Below, piece by piece: positions 4,646 through 17,388 of a stretch of 32,000 nt of DNA. This DNA comes from Promethearchaeia archaeon (GTDB lineage: Archaea; Asgardarchaeota; Lokiarchaeia; Sigyniarchaeales; SOKP01): NCBI GenBank assembly GCA_046497275.1, contig JAWOFX010000044.1, positions 4,774 through 36,773 on the forward strand, in the 5' to 3' direction. Each line of letters begins with the position of its first letter. Position 1 is the stretch's first letter. Both the position numbers and the translations under genes were made by a program. Below the pieces are notes generated by a model, which saw only the letters and a program-made list of their open reading frames with translations, ran no database searches and was not told the DNA's origin.

Positions 4646-6571
4646 TTATTTTTGTTTGTTTCTGATATATGGCAATTTTCCGCCAGCTCTTAAAATCTCA
4701 GTCATTCTATTACTTAAATTATGAATTACAGGTATTTCAGAATTTTGTGTGAGATTATGTACCATTAATTCTCTTTTCTCAAGAGATTCTAATTCAATTT
4801 CTATCTCATCGTCTTGATCAATAAGATCATAATCATTCAATCTCTGAAAAGTTAAAGGCACAATTCCGAAATTAACAAGATTATCTAAATGGATTCTTGC
4901 AAACGATTTGGCAATAATCGCTTTAATTCCCAAATATTTAGGAGCTATTGCAGCATGTTCTCGACTTGAACCTTGACCATAATTTTCTCCTCCTATAATA
5001 AATCCTCCATCACTTTCCAATGCTCTTTTTGAAAAGCTTGGGTCTATAGGATTGAAAACATATTGACTAATCTCGGGAATGTTACTTCTCAAAGGTAGAA
5101 TTTTTGCTCCCGCAGGCATTATATGATCCGTTGTAATATTATCTTCTACTTTAAGTAATACTTTTCCCTCCAATTTGGCAGCTAACGGAGGAAATTCCGG
5201 TAGAGATTTTATATTAGGCCCTCTGACAATTTGTACATCTTTGGCCTCCCTAGGAGGTAAAGGGGGGATGATCATATTATCATTCACAATGAATTTTTTA
5301 GACATTTGTATTTTAGGAAACTCACCAAATTTCCGAGGATCTGTTATTATTCCTTCGATTGCAGCCATTGCAGCAGTCTCAGGACTTACAAGATATACGC
5401 TAGCACTTTTCGTTCCAGATCTGCCAAGAAAATTTCTATTAAATGTCCTTAAAGACACAGCATCACTTTTAGGAGCTAATCCTTGACCAAGACATGGTCC
5501 ACAAGCATTTTCAAGGATCCTTGCTCCAGCTTCAATAAAATAGGCCATTTCTCCAGAACGAATCATATGGTTCACTACTTGACGAGATCCTGGAGAAATT
5601 GTAAGGACGGTATGTTGACTGATTGTTTTGTTTTTAAGCATATTAGCAGCAATTTTTAAGTCTCTTAGAGAAGAATTTGTACAACTGCCAATACAAACTT
5701 GATCAACATTCAATCCTTCAATTTCATGTATTGGTTTAACATTCCCAGGACTATGAGGTTCAGCTACTAGAGGTTCAAGTTCATCTAAATTAATTTCGAT
5801 AACATCATCATAGATAGCATCCTTATCCGGCTCTAATGAGGTCCACACTTCTTCTCTACTTTGTGCTTCTAAAAATACTCTTGTAATTTCATCCGATGGG
5901 AAAATTGAAGTTGTTGCTCCTGTTTCTGTTCCCATATTAGTGATTGTTGCTCTTTCTGGAACAGAAAGTGTACTAATACCCGGACCAGTATATTCTAATA
6001 TCTTATTTACCGCTCCTTTCACGCCTATTCTTCTTAAAACTTCTAAAATAATATCTTTTGCTGAAACAAATTCAGTCAATCTTCCAGTTAAACGTACATT
6101 AACAATTTCTGGCATTCTAAGATAGAAAGGCTCTCCTGCCATAGCAGCAGCAACATCTAACCCTCCTGATCCGATTGCAATCATTCCTATGCCTCCACAA
6201 GTGGATGTATGACTATCACTGCCTAATAAACTTTTTCCAGGAACAGAGAATCTTTCAAGATGGATTTGATGACATATTCCATTTCCTGGTCGAGAAAAGA
6301 ATAATCCATATTTAGCAGCAATATTCTGAAGATATCTATGATCATCTGCATTTCTAAAATCTGTTTGTAGGATATTATGATCCACATAACTTACGGATAA
6401 TTCCGTTTTTACTCGTGGTACGTCCATTTTTTCGAATTGAAGATATGTCAGCGTCCCTGTTGAATCTTGGGTAAGTGTTTGGTCCATTCTTATTCCAATC
6501 ATTTCACCCTTTTTGGATTCTCCATCGATGAGATGATCCTTTAAGAGCTTTTCCGCAAGTGTGTATCCCAT
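4646..6571 (-). CDS. acn: aconitate hydratase (short ~640-aa single-chain type)
   Basis: DHN, GSDSHT, GSCTN and CGPCLG 4Fe-4S ligands, plus a C-terminal swivel domain with TTDHI and NYGQGSSREHA. Confidence 0.88.
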   Translation of the reverse strand: MGYTLAEKLLKDHLIDGESKKGEMIGIRMDQTLTQDSTGTLTYLQFEKMDVPRVKTELSVSYVDHNILQTDFRNADDHRYLQNIAAKYGLFFSRPGNGICHQIHLERFSVPGKSLLGSDSHTSTCGGIGMIAIGSGGLDVAAAMAGEPFYLRMPEIVNVRLTGRLTEFVSAKDIILEVLRRIGVKGAVNKILEYTGPGISTLSVPERATITNMGTETGATTSIFPSDEITRVFLEAQSREEVWTSLEPDKDAIYDDVIEINLDELEPLVAEPHSPGNVKPIHEIEGLNVDQVCIGSCTNSSLRDLKIAANMLKNKTISQHTVLTISPGSRQVVNHMIRSGEMAYFIEAGARILENACGPCLGQGLAPKSDAVSLRTFNRNFLGRSGTKSASVYLVSPETAAMAAIEGIITDPRKFGEFPKIQMSKKFIVNDNMIIPPLPPREAKDVQIVRGPNIKSLPEFPPLAAKLEGKVLLKVEDNITTDHIMPAGAKILPLRSNIPEISQYVFNPIDPSFSKRALESDGGFIIGGENYGQGSSREHAAIAPKYLGIKAIIAKSFARIHLDNLVNFGIVPLTFQRLNDYDLIDQDDEIEIELESLEKRELMVHNLTQNSEIPVIHNLSNRMTEILRAGGKLPYIRNKQK

Positions 6572-12554: not shown

Positions 12555-13769
12555 CTAAATTACTCCCTTTTTTTTAAGAGTTTTAATTTCATCTCTTGAA
12601 TACCCCAATGTTTTTAATATTTCTTTTGTCTGTTCTCCAACTTTGGGTGCTAAAGATCTAATACTTAAAGGAGTCCTAGAATATTTTATTGGTGTATTTA
12701 CATTTGAGATTTCCCCTACTTTAGGGTGGTACTGCTTAACTACCATATTTCGAGCAATTATTTGAGGATCTTTACAAGCTTCAGAAAATTTTTTAACTGG
12801 TGCGACACATGCGTCCTTACCTTCGAAGATCTCCATCCATTCTTCTTGAGTTTTTTTCATAAATTCCTTTTGGATCTCCTTGAACACTTTTTCTCTTTCC
12901 GCTCCTTGAAGACCTTGTTTTAATTTTAAATCTTCTCTTCCTAATGTTTCACATAGCGTGTGCCAAAATTTCATTTCAATTGCTCCTACTGTTAGATAAC
13001 GATTATCCTTTGTTTTATAAATCTGATAATAAGGTGCTGATCCATGAAGAGGGTTCTCAGGTACTATAGTGCTACTTTTTTCCTCAGAAAAATGATATGC
13101 GGCAGCCATAGGCATAAAGGAAAAGACAGTATCCAGCATACCAATATCAATATATTGTCCTTGATTATTTGGATTATTTTTTCTCTCTAAAATAGCACCT
13201 AAAATTCCTATAGTTGCTAATAAACCCCCTCCAATATCTGCTGCTTGTATTCCTGGAACTACAGGTTTTCTCTCTTGATTTTCTACATCATACTTTTTTC
13301 TCTTTCTATTTAAATCCAACATTCCGCAAATCCCAACATAGTTCATATCATGTCCCGCCCATTGTTCATAAGGACCTGTCTGCCCATATCCTGAAAGTGA
13401 ACAATAAATTATTCTGTTATTTATATTTTTAAGGGTTTTATAATCAATTTCTAATTTTTCCGTTACTTTAGGCCTGAATGTCTCTAATAAAACATCTGCC
13501 TTTTTAATTAAGGTGTAAAAAATTTCTTTTGCCTTTTGGTTTTTGAGATTTAACGTTATAGATTTTTTATTTCGCATAATAATTGCATTAAACGCGCTAT
13601 ATCTGTGTCTGCCTTTTTGATAAAAAGGTGGAGGATTTGCATAAGGGAATTTGGGATTCTCTACTCTTATAATTTCTGCTCCCAAATCTGCCAAGATCAT
13701 TGAACAATAAGGACCAGGGAGCATTCTACTTAGATCTATTACTGTTATATTTTCTAAAGGTAATGTCAT
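12555..13769 (-). CDS. family III CoA-transferase (CaiB/BaiF; AMACR-like)
   Basis: DLSRMLPGPYCSMILADLGAEIIRVE, RNKKSITLNLK, ETFRP, SGYGQTGP, GHDMNY and ADIGGG. Confidence 0.9.
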   Translation of the reverse strand: MTLPLENITVIDLSRMLPGPYCSMILADLGAEIIRVENPKFPYANPPPFYQKGRHRYSAFNAIIMRNKKSITLNLKNQKAKEIFYTLIKKADVLLETFRPKVTEKLEIDYKTLKNINNRIIYCSLSGYGQTGPYEQWAGHDMNYVGICGMLDLNRKRKKYDVENQERKPVVPGIQAADIGGGLLATIGILGAILERKNNPNNQGQYIDIGMLDTVFSFMPMAAAYHFSEEKSSTIVPENPLHGSAPYYQIYKTKDNRYLTVGAIEMKFWHTLCETLGREDLKLKQGLQGAEREKVFKEIQKEFMKKTQEEWMEIFEGKDACVAPVKKFSEACKDPQIIARNMVVKQYHPKVGEISNVNTPIKYSRTPLSIRSLAPKVGEQTKEILKTLGYSRDEIKTLKKKGVI

Positions 13770-14001
13770 ATAAATATAAATTAGTTTTTTATTCTTTTAG
13801 AAATTGGGTTTTTTTTGGATAACCGTGTGACATAATCTCAAAATATATTACTTATTCATAAAAAAACCATAAAAAGAAAAAAAAGACAAATAATAACACC
13901 AAAAATAAAGATTTCTAAAATACCGGCGTATTTTACCGTTATGAAACTGATGATACTATATATTTTCAAGAAAATTCTGAAACTTTCATAAATGAATAAA
14001 T

Positions 14002-14325
14002 ATGGGTCCTTTTAGTGGAAAGGATATTCTACTCAGATGTTTTCGCTGTCGAAAGCTTTTCAGAACGCTTAAAGCGACAAATTGGGACGACTTCAAAAGG
14101 ATCGCCGAAAAAGAAGGAGGAGAAATCTTTCAATGAATTTTCAATAAAATTAGAGAAATTATTTTGATGGATCTTACTCCTTGGGAGAATGCTTCTCTCT
14201 TTATTAGTTATTTTCACTATTTAGAGAAAAAAGGGACTATAAACTTTCCAAATTCCTCATCACCCCCGATCAAATTTTCGCCAAAGAACGATCTTCCTAC
14301 AGAAAAACTAAAAAGAAAAGTGTAA
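14002..14325 (+). pseudogene. 107-codon frame of an unknown family interrupted by TGA at codon 45 (14134-14136); pseudogene, recoded gene or two short ORFs
   Basis: MGPFSGKDILLRCFRCRKLF...EIFQ*IFNKIREIILMDLTPWE...SPPIKFSPKNDLPTEKLKRKV. The part after the TGA matches the C-terminus of ORF 16331-16690 (10 of 19 residues identical). Confidence 0.5.
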
Positions 14326-14353
14326 TTTAATTTCAATAAAATCAAACCACAAA

Positions 14354-14478
14354 GGTATCAAATGAGTCCGAGTAAATTTCTAGTGTTGACTCACAATCTG
14401 CCTATGTATAATATTTGCTAGTAGTGTTACCTAACACCAATTCACGTATTTTTTACGGTCTACAGAGAATTGCACTCT
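14354..14478 (-). ncRNA. putative pseudoknotted structured RNA, copy A (family not recognised)
   Basis: Homologous to 16692-16809. Helices read on the minus strand: GGUGUUAGG/UUUGAUACC, UGAGUC/GACUCA, pseudoknot GUGAAUU/AAUUUAC and 5' hairpin AGAG-N7-CUCU. Confidence 0.6.
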
Positions 14479-14654
14479 TAACAATATATTACTTGAGAGG
14501 GAAAAAAATGAATATTTACCAATCTTTAAATTTCATTTCATTTTTTAATTAACATATTTTTCCTTACAAAAGTTTTTTAAAAACGTTTTACACAATAAGC
14601 CAAGTTTTAAAGGAATTATATAACAAATCATTTATTATAAATCAATAGTAAAAA

Positions 14655-16169
14655 GTGATTTATATGAATCAAAAACTAGAAGAAGAATTAGAAAAAGTAA
14701 TTGAGACTGAGGAATCACAGAAAAAATTTATGAACTATGTAGTACGTTTCGGAAAGTGGCTATTATTTGTATTACCTATCATTTTGGTAATCATCACTAT
14801 CCTAACAATCGTTTTAATTGAGGAGATTCCTGAAGCGACTAAGTGGATTGACTCACCAGTAGATTATAAAATTTTAACCATTTTATATGTAATAGTCTTA
14901 GCGATATATTTTTTCAATTCATTAATATTGATAATAACTTCAAGGAGAACTAATAAATCATTAGAACTTCGATTAGACTATGAAAAAAGAAAAGGAAGAC
15001 CAATCGATAGTCTTGATGGATTCCGATTAGTTATGGATAATATTAATCGTGTATTAATCTTGATGAATATAACAGCCTTAATATCCATAGCATCAGTGAC
15101 ATTATTTGCAATAATGTTAACGATAGGAAATGTCGAGTTAAGTTATATTGCAATGGGAACAACACTTGTAGGATTAGGATTAGCTTTGCTGATAAGAACT
15201 GTTAATTTTAACATAACCGATGTAAATGGTCTTCAAGAATTCTTTGAGCCACTTACCCATAGTATTTTATTAGATAATTTTTTTACTGAAGTTTTTAGTA
15301 ATCATTTAGATCCTGTTACATACTTAAAATGGGATGATTATATACTTGGAATAGAAGATATACTTACTGAAGAATTCGTTCAACTAATTTCTGAAAAAGA
15401 AAAGGAAGAACTTCCAATCACATTCGCTATAGAAAAGATTCTCTTTCTTTATTACCTTAAATATCTAGATGTGTTAACAGAAGAGCAATTTATTCAAGAA
15501 TTTAAAGAAGTTGTAGATTTAGATTCTAAAGATTTCGATATTCAAGATGGATATTGCATCGAAAAAAAATGGGTATTTGCTAAAAAACATATGTATAAAA
15601 TATTTAAATTCATAAAGAAACATAATCCCGAATTTTTCACAATAATAGATAGACTACAACTTGAGTTAGTAGATAATATCGAACGAATTGCTAATGATCC
15701 AATATATTTTGACTCATCTGCCAATGAAGTAGTTAATTTACATTCAGAGCTGAATGTTATGATTATTCTTTATAATAATAGACCCGAACCAAGAGATTAT
15801 AGAATCCGAGTGTATGCTCCCGGATTTGAACCTAAAAAGGTTTCATTAGGTATCGAAGTCGAGGGTAGGGGATCTTTTAAGATTCCCAGTGAAAATATCC
15901 CCTTGGTGTCGGATGGAAGACTGGATATCACGCAAGTTCTCTCCATGATCTTAGAAAATGCAGATACTGTTTGGTTAACACTGGAACCAATAAAAAAGGG
16001 AGAACAAACAATTCAAATCTTCATAGAAACGACCGATGGTCATATTGTTGGAGGTGAAACTAGAACAATAAAAGTCAAAACAAATATTAAAGATTATATC
16101 AAAAAACTTTCTTCTCTCGGCTCTGTTGTAAGTGGAATAGCTGTTGCACTCTCACGAGCTATTTTCTAA
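14655..16169 (+). CDS. hypothetical membrane protein (4 N-terminal TM, helical middle region, beta-rich C-terminal domain)
   Basis: 504-aa ORF with GTG start at 14655 or ATG at 14664. Four hydrophobic segments in the first ~180 aa and alternating beta-like patterning near the C-terminus. Confidence 0.8.
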   Translation: MIYMNQKLEEELEKVIETEESQKKFMNYVVRFGKWLLFVLPIILVIITILTIVLIEEIPEATKWIDSPVDYKILTILYVIVLAIYFFNSLILIITSRRTNKSLELRLDYEKRKGRPIDSLDGFRLVMDNINRVLILMNITALISIASVTLFAIMLTIGNVELSYIAMGTTLVGLGLALLIRTVNFNITDVNGLQEFFEPLTHSILLDNFFTEVFSNHLDPVTYLKWDDYILGIEDILTEEFVQLISEKEKEELPITFAIEKILFLYYLKYLDVLTEEQFIQEFKEVVDLDSKDFDIQDGYCIEKKWVFAKKHMYKIFKFIKKHNPEFFTIIDRLQLELVDNIERIANDPIYFDSSANEVVNLHSELNVMIILYNNRPEPRDYRIRVYAPGFEPKKVSLGIEVEGRGSFKIPSENIPLVSDGRLDITQVLSMILENADTVWLTLEPIKKGEQTIQIFIETTDGHIVGGETRTIKVKTNIKDYIKKLSSLGSVVSGIAVALSRAIF

Positions 16170-16330
16170 ACTTTATTTAAGTATTTTATTTTTGTTTTTT
16201 TTTAGCAGATTTAATGAGTATGAGTATTATTTCTTTTAGGATACCAATCTCTATGAAATTTGAATATGTCTAGAATAAAAATCTAATTAAAATACTTACA
16301 TTTTAAGAAAAATAATTAGGAAAACGGAAA

Positions 16331-16690
16331 TTGGTTGATAAGGGAGTCAAACATAATGGATTATTCCGCTTAAGAAATTGTCATATTATTCACGGAGATA
16401 CCAATGGTGCGGGAAACATCGACAGAAAGAAACATCCAGATCTCTTTTCAATTGAGATAATCGCCTACAATTTTGGTTTAAATTCAGAATTTTACCTTGC
16501 ATATAATTTTCTCCCCGATCATTTGAAATCTAAACATAAAACATTGACTCACTCAGAGAGAAGAAGATTTAAAAGTTTGGTTAATAGATTTTTGATGAGT
16601 CCCCGAATTTTATTTAGTCCGTCGAACGGAATACTCATAAAAGAGTTAAAAAGAGAAGAAAGGCTAAATAAAAGTAAGATTAGAAAATAA
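16331..16690 (+). CDS. 119-aa basic hypothetical protein, homologous at the C-terminus to the 14002 frame
   Basis: TTG start. SPRILFSPSNGILIKELKR matches SPPIKFSPKNDLPTEKLKR, including Ser codons switched between AGT and TCN, which points to protein-level conservation. Confidence 0.6.
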   Translation: MVDKGVKHNGLFRLRNCHIIHGDTNGAGNIDRKKHPDLFSIEIIAYNFGLNSEFYLAYNFLPDHLKSKHKTLTHSERRRFKSLVNRFLMSPRILFSPSNGILIKELKREERLNKSKIRK

Positions 16691-16691
16691 A

Positions 16692-16809
16692 AGTATCAGA
16701 TGAGTTCAAGTAAATTCCTTTCAATTACTCAAACTGCATATACTTAAATAATAGTTTTACCTAATACCAATTCACTTACTTTTTGCGGTTCTTAGAGATG
16801 TACGCTCTA
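16692..16809 (-). ncRNA. putative pseudoknotted structured RNA, copy B
   Basis: GGUAUUAGG (16768-16760)/UCUGAUACU (16700-16692); UGAGU/ACUCA; pseudoknot GUGAAUU (16775-16769)/AAUUUAC (16716-16710); hairpin UAGAG-N7-CUCUA (16809-16793). Confidence 0.6.
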
Positions 16810-16875
16810 AAAAATGCATAAATTTCTTACAATTCGATATTAAGTTTCAAAATAATAAATATAGAAAAAAAGAGA

Positions 16876-17388
16876 TTAAATTTCGATTATTTCAGCTTGC
16901 ATTTTTACCGTATCTACTATTGCAAATGTTGGCTTACCAGTCAAATAACCACACGCTTCTCCAGGATTTACTACTAATGTACCATTTTCATATCTTTTAT
17001 TGATAATATTATGGGTATGCCCTATTAATATTATATCAAAATGTCCAGATTCAGCTAATGCGCTAACTGTGTCCTCACTAGCGATATGTGTTGCATAAAT
17101 TTTTTTTCCATTTAATTCTGTGATTAATTCCATTCCTACTAAATCGCAAAGTCTCCCTAAATTTTCCTTCAAAAAGACACGATCCCCATCATTATTGCCA
17201 TATACTCCCATAAAATTATCTTTAATATTGTCATTTAGCTCCTTAAAAGCATTATATGTAAAAGGGGAAACATAGTCTCCACAATGAATGAGGGCATTAA
17301 CTTCGCGTTGATTAAGAATAGAAACTGCTTCAGAGATATTACTCATATGATCATGAGTATCTCCGATTACACCTATTAACATTTTCAT
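16876..17388 (-). CDS. metallophosphoesterase, YfcE/MJ0936 family
   Basis: GDTHD, HCGD, GNND, H, GHTH and NPGE motifs. Confidence 0.9.
   Translation of the reverse strand: MKMLIGVIGDTHDHMSNISEAVSILNQREVNALIHCGDYVSPFTYNAFKELNDNIKDNFMGVYGNNDGDRVFLKENLGRLCDLVGMELITELNGKKIYATHIASEDTVSALAESGHFDIILIGHTHNIINKRYENGTLVVNPGEACGYLTGKPTFAIVDTVKMQAEIIEI

Follow-up and report, generated by a model that had tools for sequence, protein, structure and literature searches.

Two repeated blocks in a Lokiarchaeia contig are very probably relic right ends of a tnpB-only insertion element with a candidate guide-RNA scaffold

The window analyzed in this study, a stretch of 32,000 nt from a Promethearchaeia archaeon (Lokiarchaeia; Sigyniarchaeales; SOKP01; assembly GCA_046497275.1, contig JAWOFX010000044.1, positions 4,774-36,773, forward strand), contains two related blocks within its positions 14,354-16,809. 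Both blocks are very probably the right-end (RE) termini of a decayed, multi-copy, tnpB-only element of the IS200/IS605 type (IS1341-like), whose TnpB RNA-guided nuclease is unusually large. The initial annotation had described them as two diverged minus-strand copies, at 14354-14478 and 16692-16809, of an unrecognized RNA with a series of listed motifs, which could be a new riboswitch, a ribozyme or a guide/antitoxin RNA. The coordinates and motifs were verified, and both copies exist, but the genome holds 11 copies and not two. Moreover, a TnpB insertion element is of a known kind, and the block represents its right end or omega-RNA region; the guide-RNA region was thus borne out, but a new class of RNA was not. 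The features of the two relics, designated A and B, were located as follows:

14243-14489, plus strand: relic A, a solo RE of approximately 250 nt of the TnpB element; its alignment with the family reaches about 14243
14348-14408, plus strand: relic A, long irregular hairpin (CACA..AGGUA..UGAGUC / GACUCA..UGCCU..UGUR), which overlaps the last tnpB codons in intact copies
14443-14452, plus strand: relic A, remnant of the tetraloop hairpin, from alignments and a loop census
14464-14489, plus strand: relic A, terminal module, from alignment and pair counts
14490-14509, plus strand: relic A, flank where the guide of an omega-RNA would sit; flanks differ among all copies
14655-16169, plus strand: predicted membrane protein of 504 aa between the two relics, given as context only; no Pfam match and no similarity to TnpB
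16307-16741, plus strand: relic B, disrupted 3' portion of tnpB with the RuvC-III region and the C-terminal tail, from BLASTP and a six-frame match
16681-16819, plus strand: relic B, right-end block, which covers 16692-16809, from alignments and pair counts
16820-16839, plus strand: relic B, flank at the guide position; flanks differ among copies

With a profile built from both window copies, nhmmer detected nine additional copies in the genome (E = 1e-20 to 1e-23), which indicated that the resemblance is homology and not chance. Two other genomes of the genus contain 14 and 8 copies of the block, and a search with a sequence-only model found it in no other of the 135 genomes of the family. 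This confinement to three genomes of one genus makes deep covariation within the family impossible. In addition, the block was present on 13 metagenome contigs, where it adjoins TnpB genes that are 65-79% identical. Of 11 weak covariance-model matches in other genomes, one adjoins tnpB and another (in G083) is a solo relic; the remainder, which fall within or close to unrelated genes, were set aside as chance matches.

In intact copies, the block spans approximately 140 nt and consists of the final 22 or so codons of tnpB followed by about 70 non-coding bases, which identifies it as the right end and omega-RNA scaffold region of the intact element. The tnpB stop codon lies 57-79 nt ahead of the ATGCAT end, and about half of the annotated motif is coding sequence on the other strand in these copies. 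The adjoining ORF encodes a giant TnpB of 763-878 aa, which matched OrfB_IS605 in Pfam above the cut-off (4e-10 and 5e-12) and Cas12f1-like TNB slightly under it (1e-4), and which carries the RuvC-III-like motif HGDINGAANIGRK; a phmmer search of the TnpB against PDB sequences gave no match. Diversity at the three codon positions of the tnpB tail was 0.16/0.12/0.35, a coding signature, and the 70 non-coding nucleotides were conserved even more (0.137), with the lowest diversity in the final 20 nt (0.078). Every copy ends exactly at the ...AATGCAT position, and the flanks beyond it are unrelated in all copies. Read on the minus strand, conservation begins abruptly at ATGCAT, about 11 nt past the 5' end given in the initial annotation, and continues for hundreds of bases past the 3' end given there, into the reverse complement of tnpB. 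No common left boundary was found across the copies; their 5' limits differ, and some metagenome copies are homologous for more than 1.5 kb upstream of tnpB. The elements carry a single ORF. A Y1 (HUH) transposase (TnpA, PF01797) was found neither in the elements nor in the 98.9%-complete genome, with positive controls; hence, the element is classified no more closely than as a tnpB-only (IS1341-like) relative of IS200/IS605.

Three copies lack tnpB or carry a broken one, namely the two window copies and the copy at C115:3726. Relic A, whose nhmmer match at C185:19264-19114 corresponds to 14491-14341 of the window, contains no ORF in the tnpB frame, and its tnpB coding capacity is gone. Its terminal hexamer is mutated from ATGCAT to ATATAT, its tetraloop hairpin reads CACGUAUUUU against CAC-GAAA-GUG in intact copies, so that the stem is destroyed, and two of the five pairs of its loop-to-tail helix are broken. 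Its stem AGAG (14464-14467) / CUCU (14475-14478), which is the first hairpin of the initial annotation, is intact. In relic B, the longest open piece of tnpB (16331-16690, 119 aa) is 51% identical to residues 648-743 of an intact TnpB (BLASTP, E = 1e-30), and the six-frame match at C185:21080-21514 contains two TAA stops. The tetraloop hairpin of this copy is also destroyed (CACUUACUUU); the terminal stem AGAG (16794-16797) / CUCU (16805-16808) is intact, four of the five positions of the loop-tail helix are paired, and the copy ends in ATGCAT at 16814-16819. Within the family, both relics have diverged furthest and score lowest of all copies against the family model. Since neither relic retains an intact tnpB or the tetraloop hairpin, and relic A has further losses in the terminal hexamer and the pseudoknot, both window copies are most likely non-functional.

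These remnants might instead be kept as orphan guide-RNA genes, whose transcripts would be taken up in trans by intact TnpBs encoded elsewhere in the genome. Such a role is favored by the RE block with a precise end in relic A, relic B and the copy at C115:3726, and by the outer stem of the long hairpin in copy B, which was kept through two both-side changes. However, the lesions listed above and the lowest family scores argue against it, and the flanks at the guide position match nothing else in the genome: for the 20-mers of both relics, no other genome match with fewer than 3 mismatches was found. Retention as orphan guides is therefore considered highly improbable, and decay remains the preferred explanation of the window copies.

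The 9-bp closing helix annotated on the minus strand is fully paired in both window copies, and its three differences (G-C/G-U, G-U/A-U and G-U/G-C) were confirmed in a per-pair table. Over 26 copies, pairing in this helix amounts to 93.6% on the minus strand and approximately 64% on the plus strand, where its G.U pairs become A.C mismatches. These counts would suit a discrete pseudoknotted RNA of about 125 nt, transcribed antisense to the 3' end of tnpB and acting as a riboswitch, a ribozyme or an antisense/antitoxin-like regulator of tnpB or of the guide RNA. Consistent with such an RNA, single copies fold well (z = -3.2 and -2.4 for two of 11), and its 5' end reads ATGCATTTTTAAGAG in this genome, resembling an archaeal TATA box. 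However, the TATA-like run is missing or altered in the two sister genomes, and the two outer closing pairs are U.U in the most numerous subfamily. In the larger alignment of 26 copies, not one pair changed on both sides, and the percentage paired and the covariation score equaled those of shuffled controls; the transitions that preserve the helix are synonymous or conservative changes of tnpB codons (AGG to AAA or TAT to TAC, for example). The GUGAAUU/AAUUUAC pseudoknot does pair in the two window copies, but it is only 72.5% paired over the 26 copies, with four of its seven pairs broken in 8-19 of them, and the switch that had been suggested between ACCG and UGGU found no support. Known riboswitch and ribozyme families are not matched: the Rfam search gave no hit at gathering score in any part of the window, and within 14000-17100 it gave none even at E <= 10, which likewise speaks against a minus-strand RNA, and no tRNA or tmRNA was found. 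Together with the tetraloops and the conserved terminal G.U, which indicate the opposite strand, these results render a discrete minus-strand RNA very unlikely.

On the tnpB-sense strand, the same 3' layout was found in sequences from ten genomes (three of them of this genus) and one metagenome contig. Among these relatives, the tetraloop hairpin occurs as CAC-GAAA-GUG, CCC-GUAA-GGG, CCC-GAAA-GGG and AC-UUCG-GU. The terminal stem covaries as AGAG/CUCU, AAGG/CCUU, AUGG/CCAU, CGUG/CACG and GAGG/CCUC, and the AGAG-N7-CUCU hairpin of the initial annotation is thus a real element that covaries in distant relatives. The loop of this 4-bp stem, GUGCA, pairs with the last five bases of the element, UGCAU, to form a terminal pseudoknot, and this loop-tail helix also covaries (GUGCA/UGCAU versus GUACC/GGUAU). 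In 16 sequences, from which the structure was itself derived, which are related to one another and of which four rows are mis-registered in the stem, 90.8% of the cells are paired versus 80.7% in shuffles, with 20 compensatory cells versus 6.7 +/- 2.5 and a covariation score of 0.40 versus 0.19. None of 500 shuffles reached the observed value, and all slid registers scored lower. The module was found in none of the 3' flanks of 40 ordinary TnpBs of about 400 aa from the same archaeal family, which indicates that the module is confined to the H(S/G)D(V/I)NGA sub-clade. Minimum-free-energy folds of most copies contain the long irregular hairpin of the 5' half, whichever strand is folded; over 23 copies, its sense-strand version is 88-98% paired, with three pairs changed on both sides, which is not significant against shuffles. 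An all-against-all analysis of column covariation in 27 copies yielded no contiguous helices, and clade-specific substitutions dominated it.

With regard to the strand, folding z-scores of 11 copies average about -0.75 and -1.0 for the two strands; these values are weak and do not tell the strands apart. Wobble counts (G.U versus A.C) within the family are mixed, with some helices favoring each strand, and are confounded by codon-level transitions. The GNRA and UUCG tetraloops and the conserved terminal G.U, which is the first loop-tail pair in 15 of the 16 sequences, occur only on the tnpB-sense strand, and this strand is therefore favored. These data suggest that transcription proceeds on the window plus strand and that the minus-strand orientation assigned previously was probably wrong.

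By analogy with TnpB systems, transcription on the tnpB-sense strand would turn the block into the 3' portion of an omega-RNA (reRNA) scaffold, which the TnpB presumably binds. This scaffold would bear a small hairpin with a GNRA tetraloop and would close in an H-type pseudoknot, in which the loop of the 4-bp AGAG/CUCU stem pairs with the last five bases. The adjacent flank would be used as a guide. The TnpB and its RNA would then cut guide-matching DNA beside a transposon-adjacent motif, which may allow the element to persist.

The ends of IS200/IS605 elements are recognized as single-stranded DNA hairpins, and the right end described here might accordingly serve as a DNA signal only, read by the transposition machinery as a subterminal hairpin with a cleavage site and having no RNA role. 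The exact boundary of the element and the minimum of diversity in its last 20 nt are in agreement with such a signal. However, the absence of a Y1 transposase gene from the elements and the genome weighs against it, as do the covarying stems of just 4-5 bp, which are short for a DNA hairpin, the GNRA and UUCG loops, which are RNA-specific stabilizers, and the conservation, which reaches well past a typical end signal. Furthermore, TnpB nucleases require a right-end-derived RNA (PMC10530073). A purely DNA-level function is thus unlikely; a role as a DNA signal is nevertheless compatible with the omega-RNA explanation, and the last bases may serve both. It is quite unlikely that both strands function, with a sense omega-RNA scaffold and a minus-strand antisense regulator of tnpB or the guide RNA closed by the G.U-rich 9-bp helix, or that the tnpB-less relics are orphan guide genes loaded in trans as a step towards guide arrays, when these possibilities are taken together.

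The preferred reading, an omega-RNA region at the right end of a TnpB element, agrees in several respects with known systems. The non-coding RNA of TnpB systems, including that of TnpB2 with a rearranged RuvC site, maps beside the RE (PMC10530073), and a core feature common to TnpB and Fanzor2 is a pseudoknot in which scaffold nucleotides -4 to 0 take part (PMC11832414). Like the omega-RNAs of ISDra2 TnpB and of the rearranged-RuvC TnpB2 'TvTnpB', the block is situated at the 3' terminus of tnpB, overlaps the final part of the reading frame and extends precisely to the right end of a multi-copy element; a conserved scaffold is followed by a flank at the guide position that differs in each copy, and the pseudoknot is likewise built with the last scaffold nucleotides (PMC11832414). 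Unlike the usual TnpB, the protein here is about twice as large, with a tail of about 100 aa translated across the scaffold region. Moreover, the putative pseudoknot here is made with the loop of the neighboring 4-bp hairpin in place of a distant 5' segment; the block has no sequence similarity to an Rfam family, and no transposase partner was found here. In the Fanzor2 omega-RNA (cryo-EM structure of ApmFz2, PMC11832414), the pseudoknot also lies at scaffold positions -4 to 0 beside the guide, where the block has the covarying UGCAU/GUGCA helix. However, the Fanzor2 partner lies approximately 160-200 nt upstream and the Fanzor2 RNA contains a pseudotriplex (PMC11832414), whereas the putative partner here lies 11-16 nt upstream. 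The window copies also resemble solo or truncated IS ends in that an intact nuclease gene is missing and the terminal few hundred bases remain; they differ in that the retained part is the RNA-encoding end, which may have a residual role in trans.

In conclusion, the main value of these findings is corrective: a candidate new class of RNA very probably represents the guide-RNA-encoding end of a mobile element of a known kind, probably read on the wrong strand, and both of its copies in the window are most likely dead relics. Beyond this correction, in this clade of archaeal TnpBs, which are very large, the guide-RNA scaffold seems to terminate in a compact pseudoknot that covaries and adjoins the guide, and the putative scaffold boundary, ...AAUGCAU followed by the guide, offers a concrete starting point for testing these nucleases.

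Inspection of the minus strand of window 14200-17000 recovered both copies of the ~125-nt pseudoknotted RNA proposed in the initial annotation, together with its listed motifs, and the two showed ~78% column identity when aligned. In the 9-bp helix, GGU(G/A)UUAGG with U(U/C)UGAUAC(C/U), all pairs form in copies A and B, and the three differences preserve pairing. Rfam gave no match at gathering score across the whole window and none at E <= 10 over window 14000-17100, and no tRNAs were found. The features of this region are as follows.

12555-13769, minus strand: family III CoA-transferase (Pfam 2e-98), an ordinary neighbour gene
14354-14478: copy A; element end at 14489, ~250 nt left, no tnpB frame
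14655-16169, plus strand: predicted membrane protein between the copies, 504 aa, several hydrophobic segments, unrelated to TnpB and without a Pfam match
16331-16690: 119-aa ORF upstream of copy B
16692-16809: copy B; element end at 16819
16876-17388, minus strand: calcineurin-like metallophosphoesterase (Pfam 4e-31), an ordinary neighbour gene

In the window's own genome (G000), searches with BLAST and nhmmer detected 11 copies of the block, spread over 9 contigs. In the orientation first proposed, conservation began abruptly at ATGCAT, ~11 nt upstream of the first hairpin, and ran for more than 450 nt downstream from there. On the other strand this downstream part encodes ...HGDINGAANIGRK..., and seven copies keep the frame open for 704-879 codons. 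The proteins encoded beside the block matched Pfam OrfB_IS605 (4e-10, 5e-12) and a Cas12f1-like TNB domain, and they are very large TnpBs. Moreover, AATGCAT terminates every copy, relatives' copies included, and divergence beyond it is complete. The shared end, the divergent flanks and the adjoining TnpB gene together identified the block as the right end (RE) of a tnpB-only insertion element, which is a known kind of element.

A sequence-only model run over 135 genomes of the archaeal family detected the block in just three, all of one genus, with 11, 14 and 8 copies. In addition, 13 metagenome contigs bear the block adjoining TnpBs of 65-79% identity. Members of this TnpB family span 763-878 aa, about twice the usual size; copies in G000 lie at C118:194-2485 and C71:38327-40651 and on contigs C92, C25, C108, C128 and C30, and contigs C133 and C134 end in partial copies.

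Where copies are intact, the stop codon of tnpB falls 57-79 nt before the RE end, so that the 3' half of the proposed RNA corresponds, in reverse complement, to the last ~22 codons. Downstream of RuvC-III, a tail of ~100 aa carries a coding signature, with codon-position diversity of 0.16/0.12/0.35 against 0.18/0.14/0.32 in the core. Translation of this tail runs through the guide-RNA scaffold region, and relatives lack the tail. In the last 22 codons the third positions are less free (0.216), and diversity in the non-coding 70 nt is 0.137 overall and 0.078 in the last 20 nt, below first and second codon positions, which indicated that a nucleotide-level constraint is added to the coding constraint.

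The originally proposed fold was compared with shuffled alignments, using 26 copies aligned in its own orientation. It paired 88.5% of cells, exactly the shuffled mean, with zero pairs changed on both sides and a covariation score equal to that of the shuffles. The GUGAAUU/AAUUUAC pseudoknot did not hold up either, being 72.5% paired, with four of its seven pairs broken in 8-19 of the 26 copies. A minus-strand RNA of that design draws its sole real argument from the closing helix, which is 93.6% paired and includes minus-strand-specific G.U pairs. Against this, the helix is preserved by transitions whose effect on tnpB is synonymous or conservative (AGG to AAA, TAT to TAC, AAA-GG to AGC-GG), and in the most numerous subfamily both of its outer pairs are U.U. 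Within the family, folding z-scores were weak on both strands, and an unbiased all-column covariation scan was dominated by clade signal. In a sense-strand alternative, a long hairpin covers the end of the ORF, and a small hairpin, a tetraloop hairpin and a terminal helix complete the fold. Its pairing reached 92.4%, and four pairs had changes on both sides, which was not significant.

The nearest TnpBs outside the genus are at most 44% identical in the C-terminal region, and the 3' flanks of relatives' TnpBs were fetched for comparison. A sense-strand architecture was common to the sub-clade with an H(S/G)D(V/I)NGA RuvC-III motif (represented by seven other genomes and by a solo relic from an eighth, G083) and to one NADVNA relative, and 40 ordinary ~400-aa TnpBs had no similar end. 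Its first element 3' of the stop codon is a short hairpin with a stable RNA tetraloop, CAC-GAAA-GUG in the window's family (GNRA loops in 23 of 39 copies) and CCC-GUAA-GGG, CCC-GAAA-GGG or AC-UUCG-GU in relatives. The second is a 4-bp stem (by lineage AGAG/CUCU, AAGG/CCUU, AUGG/CCAU, CGUG/CACG or GAGG/CCUC) whose loop of 6-9 nt contains GU(G/A)C. Next, an A-rich spacer leads to a terminal pentamer complementary to that loop, the pairing being GUGCA/UGCAU in most and GUACC/GGUAU in two. This arrangement appears to amount to an H-type pseudoknot whose 3' strand would be the last five bases of the element.

The pseudoknot was tested on a 16-sequence alignment with 500 shuffles, the sequences being related and the structure having been read from them; four rows are mis-registered in the stem, and the result holds regardless. 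Pairing reached 90.8% of cells (80.7% shuffled), with 20 compensatory cells (6.7 +/- 2.5) and a covariation score of 0.40 (0.19), and none of the 500 shuffles attained any of these three values. The five pairs changed on both sides (3.1 shuffled) were attained by 41 of the 500, and every slid register scored below the chosen one. Furthermore, 15 of 16 sequences have G.U as the first loop-tail pair, which would be C.A on the other strand, and GNRA and UUCG loops, once reverse-complemented, no longer form stable motifs. These asymmetries favour an RE-block RNA on the tnpB-sense strand, the plus strand of the window.

The RNA used by TnpB nucleases comes from the tnpB 3' end and the RE. In the case of a TnpB whose RuvC site is rearranged, bound RNA was mapped beside the RE (PMC10530073), and in the cryo-EM structure of Fanzor2 a pseudoknot uses scaffold nucleotides -4 to 0 and was called a core feature common to TnpB (PMC11832414). 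The predicted terminal pseudoknot fits this pattern, except that its partner is local here and distant there. Given this fit, the AGAG-N7-CUCU hairpin of the initial annotation is real but would constitute stem 1 of the pseudoknot, on the strand opposite to that proposed. The observation was confirmed and its interpretation only partly supported.

The elements carry tnpB alone, a Y1 (HUH) transposase (PF01797) was not found in the 98.9%-complete genome G000, and no common left end was definable among the copies compared; membership in IS200/IS605 proper is therefore incomplete. The Y1 search came up empty although G000 holds at least 11-13 copies of the element. The metagenome contigs at loci L083-L086 and L088 share their exact 3' end with the G000 copies, the 5' limits being nested at ~250 nt, ~500 nt, ~2.6 kb and ~2.75 kb. 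In some metagenome copies homology reaches beyond 1.5 kb upstream of tnpB, and the full element may therefore far exceed the length of the G000 copies.

Against the family model, copies A and B had the two lowest scores of the whole set. The ORF upstream of copy B is 51% identical to intact TnpB residues 648-743 (E = 1e-30), and two stops lie within the six-frame tnpB match. The tetraloop hairpin is gone in copies A (CACGUAUUUU) and B (CACUUACUUU); copy A has ATATAT in place of ATGCAT and two broken pseudoknot pairs, and copy B keeps four of five pairs. The 20-mers at their guide positions, directly 3' of the RE, had no other match with fewer than three mismatches in the genome. On these sequence features, copies A and B are read as probable dead relics.

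In G000, a second pair of directly oriented REs (C115:3726-3861 and 6273-6419) is separated by ~2.5 kb, resembling the window pair, and one member is without tnpB. Modules resembling an RE are tandemly duplicated at two further loci: at L097 (G099:C57), a slightly degenerate second unit of tetraloop hairpin and terminal stem follows the first, ~80 nt past the element end, and at L095 (G007:C2) a different hairpin module is repeated twice in tandem after the tnpB stop. The solo relic L156 (G083:C275, 1501-1568, minus strand), from a related UUCG-type element, has the stem GAGG/CCUC and terminus AUGCAU and lies between unrelated genes, which showed that RE relics of this sort are common in the archaeal family. 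A modestly useful by-product of this analysis is a covarying terminal pseudoknot, as predicted here, and an exact scaffold-guide boundary for the present TnpB clade.
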